From Ostreococcus lucimarinus (taxonomy: Eukaryota), in NCBI GenBank assembly GCA_000092065.1, contig CP000583.1: a stretch of DNA of 64,000 nucleotides, one strand, 5' to 3'. Positions 3,077 to 54,776 of the stretch are shown here, piece after piece; within the stretch, counting starts at the first letter, position 1; every line of letters begins with the position of its first letter. The notes under the pieces were generated by a model. That model saw only the letters and a list, made by a program, of their open reading frames with translations, had not been told where the DNA came from and ran no database searches. The position numbers and the translations under genes were made by a program.

Positions 3077-4643
3077 CTAAGTTGACGTTCCCGCGTCCTT
3101 TTTATAATAAGTCGGCGCGTCGGCTTCGACGGCGGGCTTGCGCGTCGTGCGCTCTTGTAACGCTCGCACCGCGTCTTTGCCCGCTGCCGCCGCCGCTGTC
3201 GCCGCGGCCGTCGCTGCCGCCGTGGCTGCAGATGCGCGTTCTGCCGCCGCCGCCGTCGAAGCTGACGCGCTTTCCCAAATACCGCCCATGCTGAAATTCT
3301 TCAGCGTATCGCTCACTTGATGGCTCACGCTCTTCGCCTCGATCACGATTCGTCGCGGGCTTTGCGCTTCTTCCAAAGGTCCATCTTGCGCGCCACCTTT
3401 AGGCGGTGGCGGGCGCAAGTTCACCCCGTGCATGTCTTCGTCCGCGATCCCGAGCGCCTCTTTTCTCGCCAGTGCGATGCGTTCTGCTTCGCCGACGTCC
3501 ATGGACTTTTCCGACTTGATTTCGTGCGGCTGGTTGAGAATTGCCCCCTTCGTCTGGTCCGCACGCGCGCGAACACCGTAAAGCGTGTACATTTTTCCGC
3601 TCGACGCGTCACGTTCGTCGCCATCAGCGTCCGCGTTGAAGAAATCGTCCAAATCGCTCGTCATCTTTGAGGACATGGTCGACGCGACGTCGAGCGACGA
3701 AGCGATGTCCTTCAGGGACTCATCCTTCGAGAGAACCGAGACGTCCTTACTCTTCTTCTTCGCCAAACTCGCGAGTTTCTTCTTAAGTTCTTGCTCGGCT
3801 GCGATTTCCTCCGTCGTCCTCGAACTCACTTGGTTCGTCATCGCGTCGTTCACCAACATGTCGTGCAACTGAAGCACGTGTGCGACTTCCTCCTGGAACG
3901 CCGCCTCTGCCTCCGCATCCTTCGCCTCTGCATCGTCTCGTCGTTTATACAACGCATCCAACTCGGCTCCGATCTCCGCTTCGAGTAACATCTCCTCCAC
4001 CTCGGACAGCAGCTCCACCGTTCGGTTGAGCGACTCGCTCTGTTCCCAAACCTTCGCCGTCATCCCCGAAACTTCCGCGAGTTCGCGCTCGAGCGCCACC
4101 CACGACTCCTCTTGCTTCCGTATCGTCGATTCCAGCGTCGCGCTGTGCCGCAGCGCGATCCTCGCGCGCGCGTCCACGTGCGCGTGTCGCACGTCGTACG
4201 CCTCCATCGTTTCCTCCACCGCGCGCGCGTACGCCGCCAAACCTCCATCCACTCGCGTATCCTCCTGTCGCGTTCGACCGCAATCATCCTCTTCGTCAGT
4301 CCATCGAATCGGCGTCTCCGCGCGCGTCTCCGGTCGTCCCTCGTCCGCGCGAACACCAAACGCGCGTCGCCGCTCGTCGTCGTCGTCTCTCGTCCCATCG
4401 CTCGCGTCGTTCGCGCACCGTCTCCGCGCGCCTCGCGCGCAGCATCGTCTCCAACACGCCCTCGCGCACGCTCGTCGAGCGTTCGAGCGCGTCCCGCGCG
4501 TCCCGCGCGCCCCGTCCGATCGTCTCCGTCATCGCCTCGACCGCGGACGTCCCGGCGCTGTGCACGCGCGCGACCGTCTCGCTCTTCGCGATCGCGCTCG
4601 ACGCGCGTCCGTACGCGTCGCGCAAGAACTCGTGCGTCGTCAT
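3077..4643 (-). CDS. Hypothetical coiled-coil protein, two exons (exon 1 from 4643 down to about 4419, exon 2 from 4264 down to 3077)
   Basis: ORF 3077..4252 has no ATG at its 5' end: its start codon is GTG, in the context ...EDTRVDGGLAAY. Immediately upstream on the minus strand there is the sequence gactgacgaagaggatgattgcggtcgaacgcgacag followed by an in-frame exon. The upstream ORF 4296..4739 supplies ATG 4643 (MTTHEFLRDAYG...) and two phase-0 GTGCGC donor candidates, at 4418 and 4469. The product is coiled-coil with no recognisable family. Confidence 0.4.
4265..4418 (-). other. Spliceosomal intron (minus strand); the acceptor AG at 4266/4265 is firm, the donor is GTGCGC at 4418 (alternatively 4469)
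   Basis: Read on the minus strand: GTGCGCGAACG...GGACTGACGAAGAGGATGATTGCGGTCGAACGCGACAG|GAG. It has the same GACTGACGA branch motif and spacing as the SmD3 and NOP58 introns. Both candidate donors are phase 0 and match the downstream exon frame. Confidence 0.45.
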
Positions 4644-4861
4644 CGCGCGTCCGCGACGCGTTCGTCGGCGCGCGGCGCTCTGCCGCCGCACTTCGCGACG
4701 CGACGACGATGCTGACGCGACGCGCGACGATTCATCCACCGCGCGTCGCGATCCGGTCGCGACGCGCGACGCGCGCGCGCGATGGACGGCGGCGCCGCGA
4801 CGCGCGCGTCCGCGCGAGCGCGCGGATCACGCTCGTGCGCTGCGACGTCAAGGCGGAGGCG

Positions 4862-5527
4862 ATGGATGATTTTCTGCGATTGACGGAGGAAAACGCGCGC
4901 GCGAGCGTTCGCGAGGCGGGGAACGTGCGCTTCGACGTGCTCCGGGACGAGAAGGATAGAAATTTAGTGACGCTGGTCGAGATATACGCCGACGACGCGT
5001 CGGCGGCGAAGCACAAGGAGACGAAGCATTACGAGACGTGGCGAGACGAAGTCGCGGATATGATGGCGGCGCCGCGGAGCGCGGAGACGTATCTGGCGAT
5101 CGAACCGAACGACGACGCGTGGACGTACGCGAACGCCGTGACGTGGAACGAAGACGATGATCAGAGCGAGATGGTGAACGCGAGTTGCGTGCACGTGCAC
5201 TGCGAATGCGCGGCGGGCGACGAGGCGGCGTTTGCCTCGGCGTGCGCGAAGAACGCGAGCGAATCCGCGTTAGAGGATGGGAATTTGCGCTTTGACGTGT
5301 TCCAGAGCGCCGAGAGCGCGCGAAAGTTTTTATTGGTTGAGGTGTACGACGGCGCGGCGAGCGCGGTGGCGCATAAATCGACGCCGCATTACGAGGCGTG
5401 GCGAGAGGAAGTCGCGAACATGATGGCCCGGCCTCGCCAGGCGCGCGCGTACGACGTCGTGTTTCCGCCCACGAAAATCAGTTGGCGCGGCGACGCGTGC
5501 GGCGACGCGTGCGACACGACGTGGTGA
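4862..5527 (+). CDS. Tandem ABM-domain protein (Dabb / stress-responsive antibiotic-biosynthesis-monooxygenase fold x2)
   Basis: Two ABM repeats: ...NVRFDVLRDEKDRNLVTLVEIYADDASAAKHKETKHYETWRDEVADMMA... and ...NLRFDVFQSAESARKFLLVEVYDGAASAVAHKSTPHYEAWREEVANMMA... ATG 4862 (MDDFLRL) starts the conserved core. An in-frame upstream ATG at 4710 (MLTRRATIHPPRVAIRSRR..., presequence-like) is an alternative start. The rest of ORF 4112..5527 is antisense to the neighbouring gene. Confidence 0.6.
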   Translation: MDDFLRLTEENARASVREAGNVRFDVLRDEKDRNLVTLVEIYADDASAAKHKETKHYETWRDEVADMMAAPRSAETYLAIEPNDDAWTYANAVTWNEDDDQSEMVNASCVHVHCECAAGDEAAFASACAKNASESALEDGNLRFDVFQSAESARKFLLVEVYDGAASAVAHKSTPHYEAWREEVANMMARPRQARAYDVVFPPTKISWRGDACGDACDTTW

Positions 5528-6260: not shown

Positions 6261-8229
6261 ATGGTGCCCGCATTGGCATCGCGCGCCGAAGCGCGGCACA
6301 CACCGACGCGCGCGATGCCCGCTCGCGCGCGCCGCTCGATCGAAACCTCTCGCGCGCGCGAACTCCTCCTCGCGATCGACGAATCGTTCGCGAGCCCCGA
6401 GGCCTTCGCGACCGCGCGCTTCGATCCTCGCGAAGATGCTGAATGGTAAAGGGCGTTCGCCGCGCGCGCGCGCGGCGCGAGCATTGACGACGTCGTCGCA
6501 CGCGCGCAGGCTCCTCGTGAAGCGCGCGTTCAACAGACGCGCGTTGGAGACGCACCCAGACAAAGGAGGCGACGCGGACGCGTTCCAAGCGATGTACGAG
6601 GCGTTTCAAGAGCTCAAACAAGCGTTTCTCGATGGCTTCTCGGAATTCGCGAAGTGCATCGAATCGGCGCCGGCGAAGGCGAAGGCGAAGGCGAAGGCGA
6701 AACGAACGATGGTAGACGCGCCAGAACTCATGGGTAAGCGACGGACGATTCCACCGTACGAGTTCTTTCAAACCGCCGCTGAACGAGACATTCCGTTCTG
6801 GAAAATTGAGTTGGCGGCGTCGGGCAGAGCTCGCTGCACCGGCTCGCGCAAGTCCCTCGGCAGCGTCGGTCGCTGTCGAAACACCAATGAAGGATCGAAG
6901 GTGGATCAGCCGAGAAGCGTGGGTCCCGGTCCCGGTCCCGGTCCCGGGTCATCGAGAGCGCTCGTCGCCGACGTGTTCGGAATCATCAAGAAGAACGCTG
7001 TGCGCGTGGGCTTAATGGATCCAGAATCTGGCGCGTACTGCCGATTCGTTCATTTGCGATGTTGGCGTGTGCCTCAGGCGGTGTGGTACAATCTTCCGCA
7101 GTACCCCGACGATACGACTGAGTATAGCGTCGATGAGTTCAAAAGACGCTTGGTCGATATGGACGGCGTCGTCTTCGTCGGGTTGAACAAACTTTGCGAT
7201 GAAGACATCACGCTCGTCGCCGAACACGCGATGAATCAGGAGGCGTGGGCGGCGTTCAATCAGAAGAAATATGTCGCCGCTCGAGCTGCTGGCCTTCCGT
7301 CATCGCGGGTTCAACTTCTTTCGAAAGACGAAATCAAAGTACTGCAGAAACTAATGTCGAAGGCGACGTCTTTAGTGCAAGAACCAGAGCAAGACGAACC
7401 GCTCGCCGCGGTGACGAAGCAGGAATCAAAACCGGAACCAAAACGAACGGACCACGATGAGTACGACGTCGTGACTGATGACGACGAACACGAAGATGGC
7501 TTGCAAGTGGCGCCGAATGTCGGCACCGCGATCGCCGTGCAGAAACCAAAAGAGGAGAAGCCACCACCGAAGATTTTGATTCCCGTCCCTGGCGAAAACG
7601 GCGCAATCGCCAACTCACTTCTTCGCGACAATTCCAAACCCATGACGTTCGTGCTGACGGGAATTTTTCCGGATCTCGGAGGCGATCGAATCGGTCTGAT
7701 GCAAGGCAAAGACATGGCGGAAAAGCTGATTCAGCGGTTTGGAGGCGTCGTGCGGAGCGCGGTTTCAGGCGCAACTGATGTTTTGCTCGTCGGCGAAGAG
7801 CCAGGCGTTTCGAAACTATCAGCTGCGCGCACGAAAGCGAACTGCAAAGTTCTCAATCTCGAACACATCCTCGACATGATTCACGGGCGCTCCATTGAAG
7901 GGAAACGGTTGCAAATTGAAAGATTCAGCACAGGTTTTCATGGAAATTCGTTAGCGTACGATATGACGCGAGCCGAATTGGAAGAGCTACGGACGGGAGC
8001 CAAAGCGCTTCCTTCGACGATGAAAACAGAGGAGCCACAACTTCTACCATCGTCCAAGTCGACAACGCGTAAGCGCAAAGCTCTTCCTTTGTCCACGAAA
8101 GACGAAGCGCAAAAGAATTTGACGTTACCCGCACCTGATAAGCCGCCGCGAAATAAGAAGCCAAAACGCTCGCCGAAAGCGCCCGTGCGAAGCTCGCGTC
8201 GTCTCGCCGCACTGACGAACGCCGCGTGA
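6261..8229 (+). CDS. J-domain (DnaJ-like), PARP-type zinc-finger-like and BRCT-domain protein, two exons (6261..6445 and 6510..8229)
   Basis: Splicing a 64-nt intron restores a J-domain: helix I/II ...FATARFDPREDAEW|LLVKRAFNRRALETHPDKGGDADAFQAMYEAFQELK, with an HPD motif. The PARP-type finger-like block is FWKIELAASGRARC...YCRFVHLRCW. The BRCT block FVLTGIFPDLGGDRIGLMQGKDMAEKLIQRFGGVVRSAVSGATDVLLVGEEPGVSKLSAARTKANCKVLNLEHI is RFC1/LIG3/PARP-type. ATG at 6261 (6315 is an alternative); there is a PGPGPG linker and a K-rich C-terminal tail. Confidence 0.55.
6446..6509 (+). other. Spliceosomal intron (64 nt, GTAAAG...CAG, branch-like cattgac)
   Basis: ORF 6141..6449 stops at the TAA embedded in GTAAAG, and the next ORF is in another frame. 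Joining tg|...|g recreates Trp and a canonical J-domain helix II (DAEWLLVKRAFNRRALETHPDK). Confidence 0.55.
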
Positions 8230-10240: not shown

Positions 10241-10848
10241 ATGGTGGGGCTCGGCAAGGGCGTCGGCGTGCCGGTGAAGCTGCTGCACGAGAGCGAGGGA
10301 CACGTCGTGACGGTGCGTTCGCTCGACGTCGATGCGCGACGACGACGTTCGATGCGCGATTGCGCGATGTTTTCGAGGAATGCGCGCGCGCGCGACGCGC
10401 GACGGCGACGCGCGCGACGCCGCGACGCGCGGGCGGCGTCGATCGACGCGCGCGCGGGCGAGACGCGCGAACGACGCGCGAGAAGCGCGCGCGGGCGAGG
10501 ATCGCGAGGGGGAGGAATCAACCCTAACGCCTCGAACGCGCGCGAAGGACGGTTTCGCGAAGACGAGGAAAGCGACTGACGACGACGCGCGGTTCGCGAA
10601 CGATGACGCAGGTGGAGCTTAAGACTGGGGAAACGTACCGAGGGCAGCTCGTGGAGAGCGAGGATAATTGGAATTGTCAAATGACGGATGTCACGCACGT
10701 CGGTCGCGACGGGAAGGAGAGTAAGATGGAACACGTGTACATTCGTGGGTCGAAAGTGCGAATGATGGTGATTCCGGACATGCTGAAGCACGCGCCGATG
10801 TTCAAGAGAATCGATCCGAAGTTTGATCCGAAGGGCGGGAAGAAGTAG
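10241..10848 (+). CDS. SNRPD3: Small nuclear ribonucleoprotein Sm D3, two exons (10241..10312 and 10612..10848)
   Basis: Exon 1 is [24 protein letters not shown] and exon 2 is [66 protein letters not shown]. The spliced product aligns along its whole length with SmD3 ([40 protein letters not shown]...[25 protein letters not shown]). Confidence 0.85.
10313..10611 (+). other. Spliceosomal intron (299 nt), GTGCGT...GACTGACGACGACGCGCGGTTCGCGAACGATGACGCAG
   Basis: Donor ACG|GTGCGT is in phase 0 and acceptor CAG|GTG is in phase 0, and joining them restores the conserved SmD3 sequence. The GC-rich interior reads as an R/A-rich pseudo-ORF. Confidence 0.85.
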
Positions 10849-12002: not shown

Positions 12003-14671
12003 ATGTTCGGCGACGCGGTCGCGGTGAGCGGCGCGATCGATCCGACCGCGACGATCGGCGCGCGCGCGGCGCGGGCGAACGCGCGAGACGGGACGGAAGG
12101 GACAAAACTTGAGCTCCCGCGATTGGATGATTTTCGCGACGAAGAGAGCGCGCGGCGGTTCACGCGCGCGAACCGATGGTTGAGCGTGGACTTGCTGGCG
12201 TTTCCGGTGCGTGGGCGCTCGGCGGTGCGACGTCGCGCGCGAACGAAGGCGAAAGAGGTGGACGAAGGAAGGAAGACGACGGATGGATGGATGCAATCGG
12301 CAATCGAGGTTGTTACAGAGCGCGAAGAAGGGGGGGACGAGCGCGAGAACGACGACTGACGAAACGGTGCGCGACGCGATAGGTGGTGCGAATAAATTGG
12401 GTGGTGGCGCTCATGGCGACGACGACGCTGTGGGGATTCACGATCGGCGTGTTGTCTCGTGAAGAGGCGGCGGAGGAATTTTTCGGCAAGGCGACGCTTT
12501 GGATTTCCAACAACTTTACGTGGTTTTACACCTTGACGCAGAACGCGTGGATTTTCGTGGTGATTTTCGTGCTGTTTCGGAAAAGGTACGCAAACATCAA
12601 GCTCGGACAGCCGGATGATAGGCCTGATTATTCCGATCTCGTGTGGTTCACGTTGATTTTCACCACGGGGCTCGGGACGGGGATATTTTACTTTGGAGTG
12701 AGCGAGCCGATGTACTACTATCGTGATGATTCCAAACTTTTAGGAACAGCAACCAACTATATAGCGAAGATCCCGTTCATGAACGATGATCAAAGGGCGA
12801 ACATGGCGATGTTTGTCACTTTTTTGCATTGGGGTTTGCACGGTTGGGCGACGTACATCTTGGTCGCGCTGACGCTCGGCGTCGTGCATTACCGACTGGG
12901 CAGGCCGCTGACGCTTCGCAGTGCGTTTTATCCCATCGTAGGCGATTACGTCAACGGGCTGTTCGGCGACTTGATTGACTCGATGTCCATCGCTTGTACG
13001 ACGTTTGGGTTGTGCACGTCGCTCGGTTTGGGGGCGAGCAGTATCAATACCATCTTGCACCGCATGAGCGCTTCGATTCCTGACGACGACGACAACACGA
13101 AGTCGGCCATCATTTGGGGCATCACCGCGCTCACTACGGGTGCACTCGTAAGCGGGCTCCACCGCGGGGTTATCACTTTCGCCATTGTCGCCTTCTCAAT
13201 TCTACTTGCGCTGATTATGATTTTGTTCATGCTTGACAACACGTGGTACCTTGCAAATTCGTTTACGCAGCAAATCGGAACATACTTGCAGTACGTGATT
13301 CTCGGCGGATTCGACAATGACGCCATAGCGCAGCTGAACATAGAGTTTACGCAGAACGACACGCACTTGTGGGGTGCGCAAGGGATAAAACAATTAGTGG
13401 AAACGGCCTTGAACAAGACGCTTGCCGATCCGACGACGTATTACTCGAGCTCGCCGACTTCGTTCATGGATACGTGGACGGTATTTTACTGGGCTTGGTG
13501 GATCACTTGGGCGCCGTTCGTAGGAATGTTTTACGCTAAAATTTCACGTGGTCGCACCATAAGATCGCTTATTCTGGTCGGTATGTTTGCGCCGATGTTT
13601 TTGGGTTTCTTTGCTATTTCCGTCCTCGGATCGCTTGGTATTCGAATGCAACGCATCGCGGAATTGGCGCTCGGCGCTGCACCAGATTGGCAGAAAGGAG
13701 TTGTGAACTGCGGTGCCCTCGGGTATTTAGAAAACACACCCGTGAGTGCGGACGCAAAAAAGTTGGCCTCGGAGCTCGGAGTCTACGCCTTGGCGTGTCG
13801 AAAATCGACGGATAGAATTTTGGACATTCTTGAGCCTTACAAAAACTTGACGACGCTTTTACAAACCTTAGTTCTTTTGGGTGTGATTTTGTTCTTCGTC
13901 ACCTCTGCGGATGCGGGCGCGTTCGTGGACGACAAAATCGCCGCGAACGGCATGGAAAATCCTCCTGTTCTTCAAAAGGTGTGGTGGAGCATCACGCAAG
14001 GCGCCACCGCGCAGGCGTTGCTAAGCTCCACTAAAAACGGTTTGTCCACGCTTCAATCGGTGAGCATTTGTGCCGCTCTGCCGTACACGTTCGCGCTGAA
14101 TTACATGTGTGTAGCACTCTTTCGCGCTATGGACGAAACGAATGAGGATCCAACATACATGAAAATGCGGAAAGGTTTCAGCACATCCATCGTCGACGTG
14201 TTTGAGAATTTCCACAAGGCTGACGGAACGATGGCGACGAAACAAGCGTCGACAAAGGATCGCTTGCTGTTACTATTGCGCACAATTTTAAATCCGAGAA
14301 GGTCCTTAACGACGGCGGGCTTGGAACTCTTCAAGCCTCTCAGGCTGAGCGTGTTAAGTTTCGGTTACGGGCTGGTGCATCTTTTGTGGATCTTGCTCCT
14401 CGCGTTGTCGCCGTTGGACAAAGGCACGCACACGTTGGCGTGGTTGATGTACTTGATTTTCACATCAATCACGGCGGCCGTGCGTTATAATCTTAGGAAA
14501 AAGTGGTACATCATCGGTAACTTGATGGATGACTTTTTCGTGTGCTTTTTCTTTTATCCATTCGCGTTGGCGCAAATGCAGCTAGAGGTCGAGAGTCACA
14601 CGGGACGCGCCGTCGAGCACGGAAGAGCCAACTTTGTTCCGGCAAACACGATGAAAGCCGCCGACGACTAG
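12003..14671 (+). CDS. BCCT-family (betaine/carnitine/choline) transporter, two exons (12003..12206 and 12383..14671)
   Basis: The BCCT hallmarks are ...WFTLIFTTGLGTGIFYFGVSEPMYYY... across multiple TM segments. The ORF track starts the main ORF at GTG 12383, exactly after a candidate AG acceptor. An upstream ORF with a true ATG (12003) ends at a phase-0 GTGCGT donor (12207). Splicing yields the continuous TM1 sequence ...WLSVDLLAFP|VVRINWVVALMATTTLWGF. If that intron is wrong, the first ATG of the main ORF is 12413. Confidence 0.7.
12207..12382 (+). other. Spliceosomal intron (176 nt), GTGCGTGGG...GACGACTGACGAAACGGTGCGCGACGCGATAG
   Basis: Phase 0 on both sides. The GTGCGT donor and the GACTGACGA motif 29 nt before the AG match the other introns in the window. 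Confidence 0.55.
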
Positions 14672-19064: not shown

Positions 19065-19374
19065 CGCGGCCCCTCCGCCGCCCCCCGCGCCCGTCGACCG
19101 CGATCTACGCCGAAATCAGGCGTCGCCGATGAATCGATTCGAGATCGTCGCGCGTCGCGATTGCGTCGCGCTTTCGCGTCCCGCGACGCCCGCGTCGTCG
19201 TCGCGATTGCGTCGCGAATGCTTCTCGCGCGCGCGCGCGCTCGCGCGTCGTCGGACGCCGTCGACGCGTCGCGCGCGTCGCGAATGCGTCGCGGATTGAC
19301 GCCGAGCGAATTAACGTTCGCGCGCGCGACGCGTCGCGATTGAATCGCCACCGCGCCGCGCGCGACGCGCCTCG

Positions 19375-20229: not shown

Positions 20230-20290
20230 ATCGTAGCGACGAATAGACGAGATTGTAGAAATTGTGATGCGGTACCGCGCGAAACTGTTA

Positions 20291-20330
20291 GAACGAACGA
20301 ACGAACGAACGAACGAACGAACGAACGAAC
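20291..20330. repeat. (GAAC)n microsatellite, about 9 units, followed by (CGTCG)n
   Basis: gaacgaacgaacgaacgaacgaacgaacgaacgaacgctcgcgtcccgtcgcgtcgcgtcgcgtcg in the intergenic region. Confidence 0.85.
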
Positions 20331-23401: not shown

Positions 23402-24466
23402 CTACGCGGCGACGAGGTCGCGCTCGCCTTCGTCGGCGGGCGCGTCGGCTTGCAGCGCGCCTTCGATGGCGGCGGCGGCGGCCTTGGCGGCCAAGTTGCG
23501 CGCGTATTCGCCAGCCGGGTAGAACTCGCGGTGTTCCTTACCGAACGGCACGCGAGTCTTCTTCATCCAAACCTCCGGCTCGACGTAGGTGCCCAACACG
23601 TGGTCGACGAGCGGGCAGCACACGTTGTAGTTGCACTGGCCGGACAACACGTGGTGACCGCTGTGGTTCAGGTACAAGTAATCGTAATACTTGGATTCGC
23701 GGTATCGCGCGAGCCACAACGACGGGATCCCATCTTGAAGCGGAACCTCGTTCAAGCCGTGCATGGCCGGATGCAACGAGTTCCAAATCAACGCGTGCGC
23801 GAGCGTGGACCCGCCGATGAGCGCCGCCATCGGCCCCGCGGAGAACCCCATGAGCGCCAGCACCGGCACGCACGTGATCACCATTTGCATCGTCATCAAA
23901 CCCGTGACATCCCACTCGAACGCCGTTCCGCGGTAGGTGTTCCCTTCCAAAACCGCCGCCGGTTCGCTCTTCATCCACTTGTCGTCCACGCGAAGCGACA
24001 TGTCGTCCAGCGTCTCCGCGTGGTGTTCGATGTGTCCGCCGCCGCCAACCTTCGGCGCTTCCTTCTGTCTCGTGAAGAAGCACCACACCCTTTTCAAGGT
24101 TTCGTTCTTGTTGAACTCGGCGTGTTGGTAGTAACGATGGGTGATGTATTCGTTGATGGACACCATCGCGTACATGGTCGGGACGCTCAGCGTCCACCGC
24201 GCGACGTCCACCGCGAGGCTCGCGCGCGGCGTCACCGCGCGCGCGTCTCGCGTCGACGCGCGCATCGCGCGTCTCTTTTGAATCGCTGTTTTCGCGTGTT
24301 CGCGCGCGCGCTTTCGTCAGTCTCGCGCGCGTTCGGGCTCGTTTCGAGTCGTCGCGTCGACGTCGACGGCGGCGGCGTTTCGAGTCGGCGCGTCGCGTCG
24401 CGTCGCGCACGCACGTTTCGCGCTCGAGATCGCGCGCATGGCGGACAGCGCGTTGGTTTGCATCAT
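23402..24466 (-). CDS. Fatty-acid hydroxylase superfamily protein (sterol desaturase / C4-hydroxylase / carotene hydroxylase type, tri-His-box di-iron enzyme), two exons (24466..24415 and 24285..23402)
   Basis: The His boxes are HRYYQH, HIEHH and NHSGHH in a polytopic membrane protein. The main ORF starts at ATG 24265, but 20 nt upstream there is an acceptor preceded by GACTGACGA. An upstream exon (MMQTNALSAMRAISSAK) ends at a phase-1 GTGCGT donor, and joining them gives ...ISSAKPIQKRRAMRASTRDARAV..., a transit-peptide-like N-terminus in a consistent frame. Confidence 0.6.
24286..24414 (-). other. Spliceosomal intron (129 nt, minus strand), GTGCGTGCGCGACG...GACTGACGAAAGCGCGCGCGCGAACACGCGAAAACAG
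   Basis: The donor is in phase 1 (c|GTGCGT) and the acceptor in phase 1 (CAG|cg), producing a Pro codon. GACTGAC lies 30 nt upstream of the AG. Confidence 0.5.
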
Positions 24467-25716: not shown

Positions 25717-25722
25717 TTTTTT
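25717..25722 (+). terminator. RNA polymerase III terminator (T6)
   Basis: tttttt directly after the discriminator base of tRNA copy 1. Confidence 0.7.
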
Positions 25723-38669: not shown

Positions 38670-41600
38670 TCATACAGTTGGCGTCGTCGGGGTCGTCGGG
38701 GTCGCCGTCATGGGAGTCGAGTTTTTTGAGTTGGCTTTCGCCTTCAATCTTGCGACGTATTGATCGAGCAGCGCATTGATCTTTTGCTTGCGCGAGTCTG
38801 TAAGAAACGCGCTCGTGCCTTGTTCCGTGTTCTGGTCAAACTTCCTCGGGATCACAGTCATCACTTTAACCATGCTTTTTCGAACAATCGTTCTGAGTTG
38901 CGACTTGGTGAGGTCTTGAACGCTGAGCGTCGTCTTGATGAAGTGCAACACGCGTTGCGCGAGAAGCGTATCCGCCGCCACCTTTGGGAGCTTCGCTTTT
39001 GATGGCATTGTATTCTTTGAACACTCAGCTGGAGACACCGCAGAAGCGAGATCGGGACCGCTTTCAGGGGCGCTTTGCTTCTGCAACAAAGCTGCACGCA
39101 CATTTGAGTCAACCACCGGATCAGGGTTAGATTCAACCATCTCGGGCTTCGGCGGCGGCGGCGATGACGGTAAAAGAGTCGACGTTGGCAACTGAGCGCC
39201 TTCGCACTTCTTCTTGCACGCACGCTCGTGCGCGGCGAAGCCAGCGCCCTTCATCGACTTGTAAACCTGGCAGAACGAGCACGTTAGCATCTTCGCATCC
39301 ATGTCGCGCTTCTTCTTGCACGCACGCTCGTGCGCGGCGAAGCCAGCTCCCGGAGCGCCTGTGAAAGTTCTGCAGTACGAGCACGTGATCGGCTCCTTCG
39401 CGGGCGTTGAGCTCGGCGGCGGTTGCGTACGCGGAGCCGGCGGCGATGACGGTAAAGAAGTCGACGTTGGCAACTGAGCGCTTTCGCGCTTCTTCTTGCA
39501 CGCACGCTCGTGCGCGGCGAAGCCAGCTCCTGGCGCGCCTGTGAAAGTTCTGCAGTACGAGCACGTGATCGGCTCCTTCGCGGGCGTTGAGCTCGGCGGC
39601 GGTTGCGTACGCGGAGCCGGCGGCGATGACGGTAAAGAAGTCGACGTTGGCAACTGAGCGCTTTCGCGCTTCTTCTTGCACGCACGCTCGTGCGCGGCGA
39701 AGCCAGCTCCTGGCGCGCCTGTGAAAGTTCTGCAGTACGAGCACGTGATCGGCTCCTTCGCGGGCGTTGAGCTCGGCGGCGGTTGCGTACGCGGAGCCGG
39801 CGGCGATGACGGTAAAGAAGTCGACGTTGGCAACTGAGCGCTTTCGCGCTTCTTCTTGCACGCACGCTCGTGCGCGGCGAAGCCAGCTCCCGGAGCGCCT
39901 GTGAAAGTTCCGCAGTACGAGCACGTGATCGGCTCCTTCGCGGGCGTTGAGCTCGGCGGCGGTTGCGTACGCGGAGCCGGCGGCGATGACGGTAAAGAAG
40001 TCGACGTTGGCAACTGAGCGCTTTCGCGCTTCTTCTTGCACGCACGCTCGTGCGCGGCGAAGCCAGCGCCCTTCATCGACTTGTAAACCTGGCAGAACGA
40101 GCACGTTAGCATCTTCGCATCCATGTCGCGCTTCTTCTTGCACGCACGCTCGTGCGCGGCGAAGCCAGCTCCCGGCGCGCCTGTGAAAGTTCCGCAGTAC
40201 GAGCACGTGATCGGCTCCTTCGCGGGCGTTGAGCTCGGCGGCGGTTGCGTACGCGGAGCCGGCGGCGATGACGGTAAAGAAGTCGACGTTGGCAACTGAG
40301 CGCTTTCGCGCTTCTTCTTGCACGCACGCTCGTGCGCGGCGAAGCCAGCTCCCGGCGCGCCTGTGAAAGTTCTGCAGTACGAGCACGTGATCGGCTCCTT
40401 CGCGGGCGTTGAGCTCGGCGGCGGTTGCGTACGCGGAGCCGGCGGCGATGACGGTAAAGAAGTCGACGTTGGCAACTGAGCGCTTTCGCGCTTCTTCTTG
40501 CACGCACGCTCGTGCGCGGCGAAGCCAGCTCCCGGCGCGCCTGTGAAAGTTCTGCAGTACGAGCACGTGATCGGCTCCTTCGCGGGCGTTGAGCTCGGCG
40601 GCGGTTGCGTACGCGGAGCCGGCGGCGATGACGGTAAAGAAGTCGACGTTGGCAACTGAGCGCTTTCGCGCTTCTTCTTGCACGCACGCTCGTGCGCGGC
40701 GAAGCCAGCTCCCGGCGCGCCTGTGAAAGTTCTGCAGTACGAGCACGTGATCGGCTCCTTCGCGGGCGTTGAGCTCGGCGGCGGTTGCGTACGCGGAGCC
40801 GGCGGCGATGACGGTAAAGAAGTCGACGTTGGCAACTGAGCGCTTTCGCGCTTCTTCTTGCACGCACGCTCGTGCGCGGCGAAGCCAGCTCCCGGAGCGC
40901 CTGTGAAAGTTCTGCAGTACGAGCACGTGATCGTCTTCACATCCATCTCGTGCTTCTTCTGGCACGCGCGTTTGTGCGCAGCATACCCTGCGCCGCCGAA
41001 GCCCTCGTACTCATACACGTTGCAAAACACGCACCGCTTCAGGACCTTCTCAGTTACTTGCACCGGCTGGACCACTACGGGCGAGAACGTTCCTTGCTCG
41101 TGTTTTCGCTTGCACACACGCTCGTGCGCGGCGAACCCAGCGCCTTTTGCACTCGCGTAGACTTGACAGTGCGGACAAGTAAGTGTGTTCTTCTCCTTCT
41201 CGAGGCGCTTCTTGCACGCGCGCTCATGCGCGTAAAACCCGACACTTTTCACGGCTTCGTACGTGTGGCAATACGAACAAGTGAGCGTTTGCTTGCCTAA
41301 AGTCGCCTCAGCAGACAAGCAGGCTGGATCGTTCGGTATCGTAGTGGGTGCAATTTTCTCCAGAACTTTCCCCGGAAGCGCAGCGTGTGTCGACGTCGCC
41401 GGCGCTGGCACCGGCGCCGGCATGTCGACTGCGTCGCCGGGCGAGTTTGACTCGGAATTCCAATGCGCGATTGAAGTTTCATCGTCCGTAGAAGCATGTT
41501 TTACTTCGACTTCTGGCTGCGTCACTTCTTCATTGTCTTCTTCATTCGTCATCGCCACGTCTTCCGTCGGTGCGACGGCCTCCGTCTCCTCGTTGGTCGC

Positions 41601-42806
41601 GCGCTGCGTCTGCGTCACTTCTTCTTCCGCGGCGCCAAAAGTCTCTTCTTCCTTCTCGATCGTCTTCTTTTTCGGCACGCTGCTCGGGAACAAGAATTCG
41701 GCGCGAACTTCTGTGACTTGGGGCGAGTCTTCTTCTACGTCTGTCTCTGCGATTTCGTCATCCTCTTCGACTTCACCCACGTCTTGTGGCACCTCGATGT
41801 TGTCGTAGTCGTCTTCGGCGATGAAATCATCGACGACATCCTTCACCGCGGGCGCGATGGCGACTAAATCATCGTCCAGCAAACTCGGCGTGGGGTCGTA
41901 TTTGGGCTTGGGTTTCCTCTTTTGCCGCGGCTTCTTCACCTTCATCACCTGGTCGAATCCCGCCAAGTCACCCATGGGTTTGCGCTTCGAGCTCGGAAAC
42001 ATCATCGTAAGATCGAGCGCGGGTTCTTCGACGTGATCGCCCGCGCCCGGTGCGGCTTCCTCGACTTGATTCGCGCGCGCTCCTTCGTTCGCCTCCGCCG
42101 CGGTCGCCGTCGTCGTCGCGCCGCCCGCCGCCGTCGCCGTTCGCCGCTCGTCCTCGTCCTCGTCTTCGTCCGCCTCCTCCTCCTCTCGCACGAACCCCTC
42201 CACCAAGGCGTTGAAATCCATCGCATCGTCATCGTCCCCATCGACTAAATCATTCGCATTCTTCGTCGTCGTCTCGCCGTTCTTCTCGAAATCCACCACG
42301 ACGGTTTCCGTCTCCCTCGTCGCCGTCTCGCCGTCTCTCCCCTCCGTAGGCGCGCTCGCGAACAGCCGCTCCGCGATCTCCCTCGCGCGCACCACCGCGT
42401 CCATGGCGTCCTCGATCGTCATCCCTTCCGCGCCATCGTCGCTCCCTCGTCCCGTGAACGACGCCACCACCGCCTCGGCGTCGCCGTCTCGCGCGCCCCC
42501 GCGCGTCATCTCCTCCTTCACCCCTCGTTCGATCGCCGCGTCCGCGCGTCGTCGCGCCGCCTCGTGCGCCCGTATCGCCTCGTCCCGCGCCCGCTCGTAC
42601 GTCGCCCGCGCGTCGTCGCGCGCCGCGTCGTCGCCGCGCGCGTCCGCAGCCGTCGGACCCAAGAGAAATTCGAATCCGGCGGCGCGCGCGTGTCGCGCGA
42701 TCGCGATCGGCTCGAACGACGGCCCCTGGAGCCTGATGTACTTGCACACCAGCGCGATGTGCTTGGCGTGGTCCGCGCGCGCGGCGCTCGGCGAGCGCTC
42801 CGCCAT
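38670..42806 (-). CDS. Large nuclear-type protein with about 17 tandem C2HC zinc fingers (CxxC-x12-H-x3-C), an acidic N-terminal region and a C-terminal DEK_C-like domain
   Basis: Thirteen or more near-identical 60-aa units ESAQLPTSTSLPSSPPAPRTQPPPSSTPAKEPITCSYCRTFTGAPGAGFAAHERACKKKR plus divergent fingers (TCSYCHTYEAVKSVGFYAHERAC, LTCPHCQVYASAKGAGFAAHERVC). The C-terminus ...LLAQRVLHFIKTTLSVQDLTKSQLRTIVRKSMVKVMTVIP... is DEK_C-like. ATG at 42806 (M142); the upstream R/S-rich part overlaps DegP and was rejected. Confidence 0.6.
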   Translation of the reverse strand: MAERSPSAARADHAKHIALVCKYIRLQGPSFEPIAIARHARAAGFEFLLGPTAADARGDDAARDDARATYERARDEAIRAHEAARRRADAAIERGVKEEMTRGGARDGDAEAVVASFTGRGSDDGAEGMTIEDAMDAVVRAREIAERLFASAPTEGRDGETATRETETVVVDFEKNGETTTKNANDLVDGDDDDAMDFNALVEGFVREEEEADEDEDEDERRTATAAGGATTTATAAEANEGARANQVEEAAPGAGDHVEEPALDLTMMFPSSKRKPMGDLAGFDQVMKVKKPRQKRKPKPKYDPTPSLLDDDLVAIAPAVKDVVDDFIAEDDYDNIEVPQDVGEVEEDDEIAETDVEEDSPQVTEVRAEFLFPSSVPKKKTIEKEEETFGAAEEEVTQTQRATNEETEAVAPTEDVAMTNEEDNEEVTQPEVEVKHASTDDETSIAHWNSESNSPGDAVDMPAPVPAPATSTHAALPGKVLEKIAPTTIPNDPACLSAEATLGKQTLTCSYCHTYEAVKSVGFYAHERACKKRLEKEKNTLTCPHCQVYASAKGAGFAAHERVCKRKHEQGTFSPVVVQPVQVTEKVLKRCVFCNVYEYEGFGGAGYAAHKRACQKKHEMDVKTITCSYCRTFTGAPGAGFAAHERACKKKRESAQLPTSTSLPSSPPAPRTQPPPSSTPAKEPITCSYCRTFTGAPGAGFAAHERACKKKRESAQLPTSTSLPSSPPAPRTQPPPSSTPAKEPITCSYCRTFTGAPGAGFAAHERACKKKRESAQLPTSTSLPSSPPAPRTQPPPSSTPAKEPITCSYCRTFTGAPGAGFAAHERACKKKRESAQLPTSTSLPSSPPAPRTQPPPSSTPAKEPITCSYCGTFTGAPGAGFAAHERACKKKRDMDAKMLTCSFCQVYKSMKGAGFAAHERACKKKRESAQLPTSTSLPSSPPAPRTQPPPSSTPAKEPITCSYCGTFTGAPGAGFAAHERACKKKRESAQLPTSTSLPSSPPAPRTQPPPSSTPAKEPITCSYCRTFTGAPGAGFAAHERACKKKRESAQLPTSTSLPSSPPAPRTQPPPSSTPAKEPITCSYCRTFTGAPGAGFAAHERACKKKRESAQLPTSTSLPSSPPAPRTQPPPSSTPAKEPITCSYCRTFTGAPGAGFAAHERACKKKRDMDAKMLTCSFCQVYKSMKGAGFAAHERACKKKCEGAQLPTSTLLPSSPPPPKPEMVESNPDPVVDSNVRAALLQKQSAPESGPDLASAVSPAECSKNTMPSKAKLPKVAADTLLAQRVLHFIKTTLSVQDLTKSQLRTIVRKSMVKVMTVIPRKFDQNTEQGTSAFLTDSRKQKINALLDQYVARLKAKANSKNSTPMTATPTTPTTPTV
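39200..40960. repeat. Tandem array of near-identical 180-bp coding repeats, about 9 units plus two 100-102-bp variant units, forming an 822-bp higher-order repeat x2
   Basis: The unit cttcttcttgcacgcacgctcgtgcgcggcgaagccagctcc...gttggcaactgagcgctttcgcg recurs with period 180 at about 39491, 39671, 39851, 40031, 40313, 40493, 40673 and 40853. Variant units at 39311 and 40133 are spaced 822 bp apart. The ORF track shows two identical 253-aa minus-strand ORFs, 39284..40045 and 40106..40867. Confidence 0.9.
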
Positions 42807-42847
42807 GACGACGCGATGTGACGCGGCGGCAGTGCGCGACGGTCCGG

Positions 42848-44398
42848 ATGGCGCGCGCGATGCGCGTCGCGACGACGCGCGCGCGAGAGACGCGCGCGAG
42901 GTGCGAGCGCGCGCCGAGCCGGCGCGCGCGCGCGCGCGCGGCGACGCGCGCGAGAAATCGCGCGACGCGCGACGACGGGGCGGATGACGTGTTCGGTGCC
43001 GAGGAGAGATTCGATGACGACGACGCGCGCGGGACGATCGGACGCGCCGTCGCGCGCGTCGCGGCGTGCGCGGTGACGCTGAACGCGCTCGGCGCGGACG
43101 CGGCGCTGATGGAGGGGACGGAGGTCGGTTGGACGAGGACGAGGACGACGGCGACGACGACGACGACGAACGACGCGCGCGACGACGACGCGTCGGCGCC
43201 GGAGGGGCGGTATAGGACGTACATCGCACCGGATGTCCCGCTCGGGGACGCCGCGGTGCGGTTGCCGATGCCAGCGCGCGAAGCCAAGAGAGACGGCGCG
43301 TACAAGACGGTGCAGGCGACGCAGCGGTTTACGGATGGCGAGCGCGAGACGGTGCGATTGTTTAATAACGCCAAGGCGAGCGTCGTGTACATCACCAATG
43401 TCGCCGTGCGCAGAGATGCGTTCACGTTGAATCTCACGGAACAGCCGCAAGGGGCGGGGAGCGGCATCGTCTGGGACGACAAGGGGCACATCGTCACCAA
43501 CTACCACGTCATCGACAAGGCGAATCAGTTGAAGGTGTCGTTTTTGCCGAATAAAGGCGGGGTGCAGAATCAGAAGACGTACGACGCCGCAATCGTTGGG
43601 TTCGACGACGATAAGGACATCGCCGTGCTGCAGGTGAACGACCCAGAGGCGCTGCGGGAGATGAAACCGCTCGTCATCGGAACGAGCGGAGACTCCATGG
43701 TGGGCCAGCGTGTCTTCGCGATCGGGAACCCGTTTGGGCTCGATCACACGCTCACAACCGGCATCATCAGCGGCCTCGGACGAGAGATTCAAAGCGGTAA
43801 CACCGGGCGCCCAATCGACGGCATCATTCAAACGGACGCGGCGATCAATCCCGGCAACTCGGGGGGCCCTTTGTTGAATTCGTCGGGACAGCTCATCGGC
43901 ATCAACACCGCGATTTATTCCGCGTCCGGGACGTCCAGCGGCGTGGGATTCGCCCTCCCGAGCGACATGGTGAGCGGTATCGTCGATCAAATCATTCGTT
44001 ACGGTCGCGTGACGCGTCCGATTCTCGGCGTCTCCTTCGCCCCCGACGGCGCGCTCGACCAGCTCGGCCTCGGCGGCGTGTTGGTGCTCGACGCTCGCGC
44101 GGGCGGTCCCGCCGCGCGCGCCGGCGTCCGCAGCACCACGCGCGACGAATCCGGCCGTCTCATCCTCGGCGACATCATCATCGAGCTCGCGGGCGAGCAA
44201 ATTCAAGACTCCAGCGATTTATACCGCACCCTCGACAAGCTCTCCGTCGGCGAAACCGTCGACGTGACGCTCTTGCGAGGCGTCGACAAAGTCTCCGCCC
44301 GCGTCACCCTCGACGACGTCAAGGACATGAAACCTCCGACCGCGTCCACGATCGTCATCCCGATGCGCACCAAGAAGTCTCCAAACTCGCCGTACTAG
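42848..44398 (+). CDS. DEGP: Deg/HtrA-family serine protease with PDZ domain (DegP-like, organelle-targeted)
   Basis: His region VTNYHVIDKANQLKVSF, Asp region DIAVLQV and catalytic Ser GNSGGPLLNSSGQLIGINTAIYS. The PDZ domain is ...GVLVLDARAGGPAARAGVRSTTRDESGRLILGDIIIELAGEQIQDSSDLYRTL... First ATG in frame is 42848 (the ORF-track start 42818 is GTG). The N-terminal 130 aa look like a transit peptide. Confidence 0.85.
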   Translation: MARAMRVATTRARETRARCERAPSRRARARAATRARNRATRDDGADDVFGAEERFDDDDARGTIGRAVARVAACAVTLNALGADAALMEGTEVGWTRTRTTATTTTTNDARDDDASAPEGRYRTYIAPDVPLGDAAVRLPMPAREAKRDGAYKTVQATQRFTDGERETVRLFNNAKASVVYITNVAVRRDAFTLNLTEQPQGAGSGIVWDDKGHIVTNYHVIDKANQLKVSFLPNKGGVQNQKTYDAAIVGFDDDKDIAVLQVNDPEALREMKPLVIGTSGDSMVGQRVFAIGNPFGLDHTLTTGIISGLGREIQSGNTGRPIDGIIQTDAAINPGNSGGPLLNSSGQLIGINTAIYSASGTSSGVGFALPSDMVSGIVDQIIRYGRVTRPILGVSFAPDGALDQLGLGGVLVLDARAGGPAARAGVRSTTRDESGRLILGDIIIELAGEQIQDSSDLYRTLDKLSVGETVDVTLLRGVDKVSARVTLDDVKDMKPPTASTIVIPMRTKKSPNSPY

Positions 44399-52538: not shown

Positions 52539-53023
52539 CGACCGAATCACCGATCCGATGAACCGAAACGTCACGTACATCACCAGCACGCGCGCGTGTT
52601 TCGGCAGCTGCGCGTCGCGTCGCTCGCGCCCTCGTCAGTCGTCGCTCGCGCGCCGCGCCCGTTCGAGATCCAGACGCGTCGTTCGGTCGCACCTTTTCAA
52701 AATACGCCTCCGCCGCCGCGCGCGCGCTTTGCACCATCCCGCCGAGATCCATCGTCGCCGTCGTCGCCGTCGTCGTCGCGCGTCGTCGTCGCGCGTCTTC
52801 GCCGGCGATCGCGGGCGCGCGCGGGCGTCGCGGCGCGTTCGAGTTCCGTGTGTAGTGTCTCATTGATTCTCTTCGCGGCGCCCACGATGCGGGTCTCGAT
52901 CTCGTATTGCGCGCGCGGGAGATCTATCAGACGACGCGCGCCGTGTGTTTGGTCCGTGTGTACACCGCGCGTCCACGAGACCACGCCGCCGCCGCCGCCG
53001 ATCGTCGCACACGCGCGCGCGCG

Positions 53024-54776
53024 ATGCTGCTGCTGTTCGAGACCCCGGCGGGGTACTCGCTGTTCAAGGTCAAGGCCGAGAAGAAGCTCCAGGACGCGGA
53101 GGTGCGTGCGACGCGCGGTGACGACGACGCGACGCGACGCGACGCGACGCGAGCGCGCGCGAAAAGGCGCGCGCGATCGACGCGAAAGGCGGTGGGACGC
53201 GCGACGCGCGCGCGGGCGGCGGTCGACGACGCGGGACGCGCGACGCGCGAGGGGCGCGACGGTCGTGGACGCGGGACGACGCGAGGGAGGACGCGCGGGC
53301 GGGCGCGCGCGGACAAAAGGGCGGGAGTCGATTCGCGAGGGAATTGGCGAATTGGGGATTGGCTGGCGAGGAAGACGCGACGCGAGGACGAGGGACTGAC
53401 GATGCGCGCGCGCGCGAACGTGAACGCAGAAGTTGCAAGATGCTTTCAGCACGGTGGAGGGGGCGAAGAAGATGGTGTCGATGAAGGCGTTTAGTAAGTT
53501 TGAGAATACGACGGAGGCGCTCGCGGCGGCGGCGACGCTGGTGGATTCCAAAGTCGGGAAGAACTTGAAAAAGTTTTTGTCGAAACACGCCGAGGGGGAG
53601 ACTTTGGCGGTGGCGGACTCTAAACTCGGCGCGGCGATCAAAGAGAAGCTGGGTATTAACTGCGTCGCCGATAGTGGGGTTATGGAACTCATGCGCGGCG
53701 TGCGTTACCAGCTCAACGAGTTGATCGGAGGGTTGACGGATGCCGATCTCGCGCCGATGGCTTTGGGTTTGTCTCACTCCTTGTCGCGATATAAGCTCAA
53801 GTTTTCTCCGGATAAGGTTGATACCATGGTTATTCAAGCCATCGGCTTGCTCGACGAACTCGACAAGGAATTGAACACGTATTCCATGCGCGTGCGCGAG
53901 TGGTACGGGTGGCACTTCCCCGAGCTCACGAAGATCATCGCGGATAACATGCAGTACGCCAAGGCTGCGAAACTCATGGGTGATCGCGCGAAGGCGGCGG
54001 GGATCGACTTCTCTGGTATTCTCGATGAAGACGTCGAACAAGAGGTAAAAGACGCCGCCATCATTTCCATGGGGACGGAAATTTCCGAAGAAGATTTGAG
54101 CAACATTGGACAGTTGGCCGACCAAGTCATCTCCTTGAGCGAGTACCGTGCGCAACTGTACGATTATCTGAAGGCTCGAATGAACGCCATCGCGCCCAAC
54201 CTGACGGTGCTCGTCGGCGAACTCGTCGGCGCTCGTCTCATCTCCCACGCGGGTTCGTTGATGAACCTCGCCAAGCACCCGGCGTCTACGGTGCAAATTT
54301 TGGGAGCGGAAAAGGCTCTTTTCCGCGCGCTCAAGACCAAGCATGAAACTCCAAAGTATGGTTTGATCTATCATGCCTCACTCATCGGCCAAGCGGCGCC
54401 CAAGTTCAAGGGGAAAATTTCTCGCGTCTTGGCGGCGAAGTGCGCGTTGTCGATTCGCGTCGACGCTCTTGGGGAATCCTCCGAGGCGACGATTGGCGTT
54501 GAAGCGCGCGAAAAGGTCGAGGCACGATTACGACAGCTTGAAGGCAAGACGCTTGGCGAAGCTTCTGGCGTCAAGAAGATGTCTGGAGACATAAAGAAGC
54601 ACGACAAGGACCGCAACGCGGACGCGCCGGCGCTTCTCACCGCGCCGCGTTCGTACAATCCGGATAAGGATGCGACGAAGAAGGAGAAAAAGGAGAAGAA
54701 AGATAAGAAAGAGAAGCGTAAGAGCGAAGGCGACTCTCCAAAGTCTTCGAAGAAGAGCAAGAAGAACAAAGATTAA
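53024..54776 (+). CDS. NOP58: Box C/D snoRNP protein NOP58, two exons (53024..53101 and 53430..54776)
   Basis: Exon 1 MLLLFETPAGYSLFKVKAEKKLQDAE matches the NOP58 N-terminus (MLVLFETSAGYAIFKVLDEKKLQEV). Exon 2 is KLQDAFSTVEGAKKMVSMKAFSKFENTTEALAAAATL...GAEKALFRALKTKHETPKYGLIYHASLIGQAAPKFKGKISRVLAAKCALSIRVDALGE..., covering the NOP5 N-terminal, NOSIC and Nop domains, and it ends in a KKE/D tail. Confidence 0.85.
53102..53429 (+). other. Spliceosomal intron (328 nt), GTGCGTGCGACG...GGGACTGACGATGCGCGCGCGCGCGAACGTGAACGCAG
   Basis: Phase 0 on both sides. The donor hexamer and the 3' segment (GACTGACGA...GCGAACG.TGA.CGCAG) are almost the same as in the SmD3 intron. Confidence 0.8.

Follow-up and report, generated by a model that had tools for sequence, protein, structure and literature searches.

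In the Mamiellales, 'canonical' introns occur everywhere except in low-GC outlier regions. Introns of the outlier chromosome (chromosome 2, or BOC) are ~40-65 nt long and AT-rich, with a weak GTRNGT donor and without a discernible branch motif. The closest described counterpart of the introns reported here comes from the same genome, where Irimia and Roy (2008, PLoS Genet, 'The peculiar case of Ostreococcus') characterized Ostreococcus lucimarinus introns outside chromosome 2: these lie in the GC-rich bulk genome, are few in any one gene, and combine a GTGCGTG donor consensus (4.8 bits) with a GACTGACG branch site. Among the EST-confirmed introns of this set, 87.2% contain ACTGAC and 66.5% contain GACTGACG (PMC2483917). 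Canonical introns of Micromonas and other Mamiellophyceae are similar singletons without mutual similarity: those of Micromonas combine AG|GTGCGT with an NCTGAC branch site, Mamiellales as a whole favour GYGCGY donors, and U1 candidates in the Mamiellales genomes searched have a standard pairing region at the 5' end (Verhelst et al. 2013; PMC3879977; bioRxiv 10.1101/2022.06.08.495308). The introner elements of Micromonas (D-IE1-4 in M. pusilla; ABC-IE/IE-C in M. commoda) are also spliceosomal: their donor is GY, their branch site GacUGAC and their acceptor CAG. They exist as hundreds to thousands of copies with high full-length identity, lineage-specific positions and a 5'ss-complementary segment. 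Finally, hemiascomycete yeasts and other intron-poor eukaryotes (GTATGT donor, TACTAAC branch site) have few, 5'-biased introns, in which the extended donor and branch motifs hardly vary and the spacing between branch point and 3' splice site is constrained.

We analyzed a continuous stretch of 64,000 nucleotides, hereafter the window, which derives from O. lucimarinus CCE9901: its spliced NOP58 and hydroxylase proteins exactly match the reference proteins XP_001416562.1 and XP_001416841.1, both placed on a 982,987-bp record. The window has a GC content of 62% and yielded six introns over several dozen genes, the GC-rich setting and low intron density of the bulk genome. These introns are:

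10313..10611, plus strand: SmD3 intron, 299 nt, phase 0; donor GTGCGTTCG (GTGCGT), acceptor ACGCAG, and branch site GCGACTGACGACG with its A 32 nt from the 3' end.
53102..53429, plus strand: NOP58 intron, 328 nt, phase 0; donor GTGCGTGCG (GTGCGT), acceptor ACGCAG, and branch site GGGACTGACGATG with its A 30 nt from the 3' end.
12207..12382, plus strand: BCCT transporter intron, 176 nt, phase 0; donor GTGCGTGGG (GTGCGT), acceptor CGATAG, and branch site GACGACTGACGAAA with its A 23 nt from the 3' end.
24286..24414, minus strand: intron of a fatty-acid hydroxylase/desaturase-like gene, 129 nt, phase 1; donor GTGCGTGCG (GTGCGT), acceptor AAACAG, and branch site GAGACTGACGAAA with its A 31 nt from the 3' end.
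4265..4418, minus strand: intron of a coiled-coil gene, 154 nt, phase 0, with a lineage-restricted distribution; donor GTGCGCGAA (GTGCGC), acceptor CGACAG, and branch site TGGACTGACGAAG with its A 31 nt from the 3' end.
52608..52692, minus strand: thioredoxin gene intron, 85 nt, phase 0; donor GTGCGACCG (GTGCGA), acceptor GCGCAG, and branch site GACGACTGACGAGG with its A 27 nt from the 3' end.

A first-pass annotation of the window had listed five of these introns, and on re-examination both their coordinates and their GTGCGT or GTGCGC starts hold; it had missed the thioredoxin intron, which is built in the same way. We assign all six with high confidence to the ordinary GT-AG (U2-type) spliceosomal introns of the canonical Mamiellales class. 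Since Irimia and Roy (2008) described the same donor and branch consensus for introns outside chromosome 2, this consensus is already published for the same genome. The window introns show no substantive difference from that description; their 9-mer is extended, and donor position +6 is T, C or A. We also considered the outlier-chromosome intron type and rejected it, as the window introns are 85-328 nt long with 25-37% A+T and have strong donor and branch motifs.

All six introns start with GTGCG[T/C/A], end with YAG, and share an exact copy of the 9-mer GACTGACGA; the branch A is located 23-32 nt before the 3' end. This 9-mer is one base longer (…GA) than GACTGACG in each of the six. The first-pass annotation had placed it 29-38 nt upstream of the AG, which fits our measurement of 28-37 nt from the motif start in the five introns that it listed. 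The window contains seven copies of GACTGACGA against 0.98 expected, a count reached in none of 100 shuffles, and six of the seven lie on the sense strand within the introns. GTGCGY alone is not enriched in the window (203 versus 214 expected), nor is the loose composite GTGCG...ACTGAC...YAG significantly so (6 versus 3.4 +/- 1.9). The statistical weight for the window introns is thus carried by the 9-mer together with the exon junctions. Upstream of the donor, the exons end in ACG, GAG, CCG, AAC, ACG and AAG, without the consistent -2/-1 'AG' of Micromonas; the reported branch point-to-acceptor distance also differs, at 43-52 nt in Micromonas compared to 23-40 nt from the branch A in Ostreococcus. 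As a separate observation, the T-poor, G-rich strand bias leaves small scope for terminal inverted repeats.

We infer splicing of the six introns from homology, reference annotation and published EST statistics. Removal of the SmD3 intron yields a protein that aligns without gaps to solved Sm D3 chains over its VVT|VEL junction; the exact 102-residue product is present in JGI/Logan data, and a transcriptome-derived SmD3 falls in the same 90% cluster. Spliced NOP58 (474 residues) is identical to XP_001416562.1 and aligns without gaps over the junction to the human NOP58 chain 7mq8_SB, and the spliced hydroxylase (311 residues) is identical to XP_001416841.1. These intervals could in principle be coding sequence or UTR that is never removed and contains the motifs by coincidence, as their interiors are GC-rich with few stops, and metagenome annotations made by prokaryote-style gene callers translate straight through them. 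We consider this reading barely credible. Besides the gapless alignments and exact reference matches of the spliced products, an unspliced reading of the hydroxylase intron runs into an in-frame stop codon, and the two open frames of the coiled-coil gene join only after removal of the intron, because 154 nt is not a multiple of three. Moreover, the intron class is EST-confirmed genome-wide in published data.

Five of the six introns (SmD3, BCCT, NOP58, thioredoxin and hydroxylase) are found at orthologous positions in two to five Ostreococcus lineages, whose PPIL2 proteins are only 73-82% identical. The position of the SmD3 intron is common to five Ostreococcus lineages, and that of the BCCT intron, after a conserved ...AFP codon, to O. 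tauri and lineages B and X. O. tauri also has an intron at the NOP58 position, as does a contig of 45% GC that is probably from Bathycoccus and has GTTGGT as the donor. The hydroxylase intron has a counterpart after about codon 17-19 in lineages L019 and L021. At the codon position of the thioredoxin intron (..FER|LPKH..), the O. tauri ortholog has a 108-nt stretch that starts with GTGCGC, contains GGACTGACGACG and ends with TAG, and its annotated gene span minus its coding length is likewise 108 nt. Across 21 introns from five Ostreococcus lineages, 19 have a GTGCG donor (the exceptions are GTGAG and GTGGG) and all contain ACTGAC or ACTAAC. Among population contigs, the NOP58 intron has an invariant GTGCG core, branch site and last 110 nt, and donor position +6 varies between T, C and A. 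In orthologous introns the signals are kept and the interiors cannot be aligned, even between lineages A and B.

The first-pass annotation had offered two explanations for the shared architecture: a strict splicing consensus, or a recently propagated family of introner elements. In the latter reading, the window introns would be copies of a recent introner-like element, and their signals would be inherited from a common mobile ancestor of the kind represented by M. pusilla D-IE and M. commoda ABC-IE/IE-C. The identical 9-mer in all six introns is compatible with such a descent, as is the GACTGACG branch motif that M. commoda IE-C/ABC-IE shares with them (PMC3879977), and the 3' ends of the SmD3 and NOP58 introns look alike by eye. 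We compared the six introns in all 15 pairs, scoring alignments of interiors and of tails against dinucleotide shuffles. With composition controlled in this way, neither interiors nor tails were more alike than shuffled sequence (mean z of 0.26 and 0.27, respectively); the lowest interior p value was 0.037, and no pair stands out when 15 comparisons are allowed for. The SmD3 and NOP58 introns had been called nearly identical over their last 40 nt, which is overstated: with the shared 9-mer and YAG taken out, their tails give z=1.36 and p=0.15 against dinucleotide shuffles. When 15 introns are aligned by their branch A, information content stays close to background beyond positions -5 to +3, outside the 9-mer. 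A low-complexity-masked BLAST search returned essentially self-matches only, apart from a few weak matches to GC-rich sequence elsewhere in the window. Moreover, the 3' module of the lineage B SmD3 intron is as similar to that of the window NOP58 intron as are the SmD3 and NOP58 introns within one genome. Non-orthologous likeness that is as high across species as within a genome points to convergent signals plus CG runs.

Other hallmarks of introners were sought with similar outcomes. The exon flanks of the window introns show no consistent target-site duplication, a feature that the first-pass annotation had associated with mobile families along with identity beyond the splice signals. Unlike Micromonas introners, with their 5'ss-complementary segment, the window introns show no excess pairing: the pairing probability of donor nucleotides 1-6 is not above that of shuffles, and folding-energy z-scores are positive. 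Their lengths spread from 85 to 328 nt, five of the six occupy orthologous positions, and the NOP58 position is shared with the probable Bathycoccus contig despite its different donor. No introner family in Ostreococcus is reported in the introner papers that we consulted. We therefore reject a recent introner family as the source of the window introns, which we regard as highly improbable, because the introns lack similarity beyond their signals and five of the six lie at orthologous positions with diverged interiors. The strict-consensus explanation is the one supported, in agreement with the published description.

The coiled-coil intron differs from the other five in its distribution. Only lineages A, B and X have it, with its position unchanged in B and X, and it is absent from O. 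tauri and lineage D, where the reading frame is continuous. In a PPIL2 tree, lineages A, B and X group together with a bootstrap value of 77%, and the placement of groups C and D relative to this clade has only 18% support; the intron was either gained or lost. Conversely, O. tauri contains an intron (L001 7330-7397, donor GTGGGC) that has no counterpart in the window species. Together, this O. tauri-only intron and the clade restriction of the coiled-coil intron indicate that introns turn over in Ostreococcus. Such turnover would be expected if some window introns, at least the coiled-coil intron, came from an old episode of gain, with interiors since decayed so that the splicing signals alone are recognizable; the unalignable interiors of orthologous introns in lineages A and B imply decay fast enough to erase a family resemblance. 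Nonetheless, one loss, or two, fits the distribution as well as one gain, given the weakly supported branching of C and D, and the coiled-coil intron resembles no other intron. Any gained intron also needs canonical signals, which makes the signals uninformative about a mobile source. We judge this old-gain origin unlikely. Slightly less likely again is the specific proposal that the coiled-coil intron was gained in the ancestor of the three lineages and, perhaps with other canonical introns, descends from a now-decayed introner family akin to M. commoda ABC-IE, which contains GACTGACG. If true, this would mean that the strict consensus across the genus stems partly from mobile-element descent and not from selection alone.

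Based on the signals, their spacing, the restored proteins, the conserved positions and the loss of interior similarity that we observe, we favor a model of ordinary canonical introns in which three short signals, maintained by strong purifying selection, would define each intron: |GTGCG(T/C/A) at the 5' splice site, GACTGACG(A) as the extended branch site, and YAG as the acceptor, placed 23-40 nt downstream of the branch A. Between these signals would lie freely evolving, G-rich, T-poor, CpG-rich low-complexity filler that lacks a pyrimidine tract. Both the literature and general knowledge suggest that in an intron-poor genome the spliceosome may depend almost entirely on such core motifs. 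The window class has in common with hemiascomycete introns their scarcity, 5' bias, strict extended motifs and constrained branch-point spacing. It differs in having GTGCG in place of GTATG and ACTGAC in place of ACTAAC, an extreme GC content, and purines and CpG instead of pyrimidines enriched ahead of the 3' splice site. Recognition of the branch site is presumably by U2 pairing plus SF1/BBP, and the donor would be recognized by a U1 snRNA with a standard-sequence 5' end. Because the U1 5' end is standard, a compensating U1 change does not account for the +3G/+4C preference. The +4C preference goes beyond what standard U1 and U6 pairing would predict, and canonical U2 pairing does not account for the flanking G and GA of the branch motif.

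The discovery value of these introns is small: the donor and branch consensus was published in 2008, together with its confinement to the bulk genome and its connection to intron poverty, and the lack of a compensating U1 change was reported in 2022. In practice, the motif pair is a reliable annotation aid in O. lucimarinus, where it gave the sixth intron; in picoeukaryote contigs from metagenomes, prokaryote-style gene calls routinely turn such introns into false peptides.

The first-pass annotation listed five intervals as introns sharing a GTGCGY donor and a branch/3' module, and proposed either strict splice signals or introner-like elements. Read directly from the sequence, all five are as described, with each beginning GTGCGT or GTGCGC, ending in YAG, and containing an exact copy of the extended branch-site 9-mer GACTGACGA. 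We identified a sixth intron of the same build, absent from that list, in a thioredoxin gene; in O. tauri, its position is taken by an intron-like stretch of 108 nt.

Introns of the window, with the distance from the branch A to the 3' end given last
4265-4418, minus strand: coiled-coil intron, 154 nt, donor GTGCGC, 31 nt
10313-10611, plus strand: SmD3 intron, 299 nt, donor GTGCGT, 32 nt
12207-12382, plus strand: BCCT intron, 176 nt, donor GTGCGT, 23 nt
24286-24414, minus strand: hydroxylase intron, 129 nt, donor GTGCGT, 31 nt
52608-52692, minus strand: thioredoxin intron, 85 nt, donor GTGCGA, GACGACTGACGAGG, acceptor GCGCAG, 27 nt
53102-53429, plus strand: NOP58 intron, 328 nt, donor GTGCGT, 30 nt

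Seven copies of the 9-mer GACTGACGA are present in the window (0.98 expected), a count reached by none of the shuffled sequences. Five copies lie in the introns listed initially and one in the thioredoxin intron; the seventh, at 62489 on the plus strand and antisense to ORF 62460-63020, is the single copy that chance would give. GTGCGY alone is not enriched in the window (203 versus 214 expected), and neither is a loose composite of the signals to any significant degree (6 versus 3.4 +/- 1.9). The evidence for introns comes from the 9-mer, its fixed distance to the AG, and the reading frames. An intron inventory built on GT[GA][ACT]G, NCTRAC, AG and an open-frame test was abandoned: at 62% GC long spurious ORFs abound and GTGCG is found 321 times, so that false candidates ran into the hundreds. 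Segmentation of non-coding gaps by codon-usage coding potential was likewise too noisy for use. A further intron hinted at by an O. tauri gene model, between ORFs 62460-63020 and 63105-63779 (minus strand), was rejected, as a stop codon in the sequence there precedes a distinct gene with its own ATG start; an ACTGAC at 63825 (minus strand) falls within an intergenic spacer. Across the whole window, branch-site-like words are scarcer outside introns than expected (CTGAC, 61 versus 103 +/- 11; ACTAAC, 1 versus 8.5 +/- 2.7), a deficit possibly due to avoidance of cryptic branch sites, or simply to codon usage and avoidance of stop codons.

We infer from the encoded proteins that these intervals are spliced. 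Removal of 10313-10611 from SmD3 leaves a 102-aa protein whose alignment to solved Sm D3 chains runs over the junction without gaps (E=6.5e-43), and removal of 53102-53429 from NOP58 leaves a 474-aa protein with a gapless alignment to human NOP58. Since the coiled-coil interval is 154 nt long, its two flanking open frames join only on its removal, and the hydroxylase interval brings a stop codon on read-through, its computed splice being in frame. By exact-sequence look-up, the spliced NOP58 and hydroxylase proteins match XP_001416562.1 and XP_001416841.1, respectively, of Ostreococcus lucimarinus CCE9901 at every residue; the window represents this strain or one essentially identical to it. 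JGI/Logan data also contain the spliced SmD3 sequence exactly, in a cluster that includes a transcriptome-derived member. Public metagenome annotations translate such introns as protein: a 565-aa "NOP58" cluster (P0015; L023-L025; 166 contigs of 45% GC, probably Bathycoccus) reads through a 294-nt intron in frame, and gene calls for the window species (L002-L015) present exon 1 plus intron as separate ORFs of 79-183 aa.

If these introns were a recently propagated introner family, they would be expected to resemble one another beyond their splice signals. Such an origin has a parallel in the IE-C introner family of Micromonas commoda strain RCC299, which bears the same GACTGACG as O. lucimarinus introns (PMC3879977), and the 3' ends of the SmD3 and NOP58 introns had been described as nearly identical. 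That description does not hold against dinucleotide shuffles (tails, z=1.36, p=0.15). We stripped each intron of its 8 leading nt, its branch motif and its YAG and scored local alignments of all 15 window intron pairs against dinucleotide shuffles; similarity stayed at shuffle level in both the interiors (mean z 0.26) and the branch-to-acceptor stretch (0.27). In a search with low-complexity masking, each intron matched little but itself, bar a few weak matches to GC-rich window sequence; unmasked, each matched dozens of CG-rich stretches throughout the window, including coding regions. In an alignment of 15 introns anchored at the branch A, only positions -5 to +3 rose above background in information content. 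The exon flanks of the window introns carry no consistent repeat of the kind left by target-site duplication, the donor pairs with downstream complementary sequence no more than in shuffles, and predicted folding is not unusually stable.

We compared syntenic loci from the O. tauri group (lineage C; L001, L016), lineage B (L017, L019), lineage X (L029), lineage D (L026) and a further lineage, L021, with the window species as lineage A. Among the fetched Ostreococcus lineages, identity to the window in PPIL2, the gene divergent from SmD3, is 73-82%. Look-ups of window ORF 19105-20736 and of the O. lucimarinus PPIL2 model P0122 gave no hits.

Lineages with an intron at the same position
SmD3 intron: all five lineages A, B, X, C and D
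BCCT intron: A, B, X and C
NOP58 intron: A, C and a 45%-GC contig, probably Bathycoccus, with donor GTTGGT
Thioredoxin intron: A and C
Hydroxylase intron: A, B and L021

An O. tauri ortholog of the hydroxylase intron was not recovered; the best protein match, P0266 (54% identity), lies on a different contig and is probably a paralog. The interiors of orthologous introns are unalignable, with donor, branch site and acceptor retained: 19 of 21 introns start with GTGCG, and all 21 contain ACTGAC or ACTAAC. Same-species population contigs (L002-L007) do not vary in the GTGCG, branch site or final 110 nt of the NOP58 intron, and carry indels in its interior. The donor at 53102-53107 reads GTGCGT, GTGCGC or GTGCGA in these contigs, with +6 freely polymorphic. 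Overall, the similarity, age, hallmark and population tests all fit old introns and none a recent burst, and the proposal that the window introns are introner elements is not supported.

Gene content at syntenic positions also differs between lineages. Lineages B and D lack the 597-aa ORF that lies between PPIL2 and the Ocnus-domain gene (6436-8229, plus strand), and in O. tauri it differs; gene calls on the lineage D contig include no BCCT gene (12003-14671, plus strand, in the window).

Among the lineages compared, the coiled-coil intron occupies the same codon position in A, B and X only, and its site is an uninterrupted frame in O. tauri (L016, ~14950) and lineage D (L026, ~9990). A neighbor-joining tree of PPIL2 groups A, B and X with 77% support, the order of the O. 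tauri group and D having only 18%; the pattern may reflect a gain in the A/B/X ancestor or one or two losses. This lineage-restricted intron shows no sequence link to any other intron. Conversely, an F-box-like gene of O. tauri contains a 68-nt intron (L001, 7330-7397; GTGGGC...GCGGACTGACGGG...CAG) that the window species does not have (window, ~50420). These differences in presence show that introns turn over in Ostreococcus.

Two intron interiors contain candidate regulatory elements. The SmD3 intron carries a telo-box resembling the telomere repeat (AACCCTA / TAGGGTT; 10520-10527), the only A/T-containing 7-mer common to the SmD3 introns of the five Ostreococcus lineages (window, L017, L016, L026 and L029), whose interiors otherwise do not align; the window has a single AACCCTAA (0.21 expected). 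Its flanks are shared as well (AATCAACCCTA in the window, inverted in O. tauri), and its orientation is opposite in the window species. As SmD3 and PPIL2 are divergent genes ~95 bp apart, the telo-box may have a regulatory role from within the intron. ATTGG (inverted CCAAT) repeats at 53330-53350 in the NOP58 intron (GGAATTGGCGAATTGGGGATTGGC), with a similar AATTGGAATCGG in O. tauri (L001, ~10310-10330), could be another regulatory island in a first intron.

In the most likely model of splicing for these introns, essentially all splicing information lies in the donor, in the branch motif and in a YAG 23-40 nt further downstream, and the sequence between them is filler. The sense strand of the six window introns is biased in composition (T 5-10% and G 34-48%, versus 19% and 31% window-wide); they lack a pyrimidine tract before the acceptor, the last 20-30 nt being CpG/purine-rich. 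GUGCGU would pair with the standard U1 5' end at +1, +2, +5 and +6, with a wobble at +3 and a mismatch at +4, and ACUGAC would form a duplex with the U2 GUAGUA box that contains one G-U pair and a bulged A. To our knowledge, canonical U2 pairing does not explain the conserved flanking G and GA of GACUGACGA, which may reflect SF1/BBP protein contacts or a variant U2. An Rfam scan of the window returned tRNAs only and no snRNA genes.

The window also contains tandem repeats. Three tandem 150-bp units, 99% identical (25618-26069, plus strand), each contain a tRNA-like gene of ~99 nt (Rfam tRNA, 44/35/35 bits), a length suggestive of either an intron in the tRNA gene or a long variable arm; the ARAGORN anticodon call is not credible. 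Near-perfect 180-bp tandem repeats (39304-40979, minus strand; 98-99% identical, ~9 copies, with 102-bp variants) lie within ORF 38670-43229 (1519 aa).

The donor and branch signals of the window introns are already known. In their analysis of the O. lucimarinus genome, Irimia and Roy (2008) found ACTGAC in 87.2% and GACTGACG in 66.5% of 319 EST-confirmed introns outside chromosome 2, with an "atypical" GTGCGTG donor consensus (4.8 bits); chromosome 2 introns are without these signals (PMC2483917). Such strictness is a convergent trait of intron-poor genomes. Canonical Micromonas introns use the same AG|GTGCGT and NCTGAC signals (Verhelst et al, 2013; PMC3879977), and GYGCGY donors extend across Mamiellales, where the U1 pairing region is standard in the candidates found (2022 preprint, 10.1101/2022.06.08.495308). 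Our finding is thus a correct rediscovery, and the strict-signal reading of the first-pass annotation is borne out by this published description, by the lack of similarity beyond the signals, and by the positions shared across lineages. Taken together, our four tests are consistent with old introns that selection on three short signals keeps spliceable.
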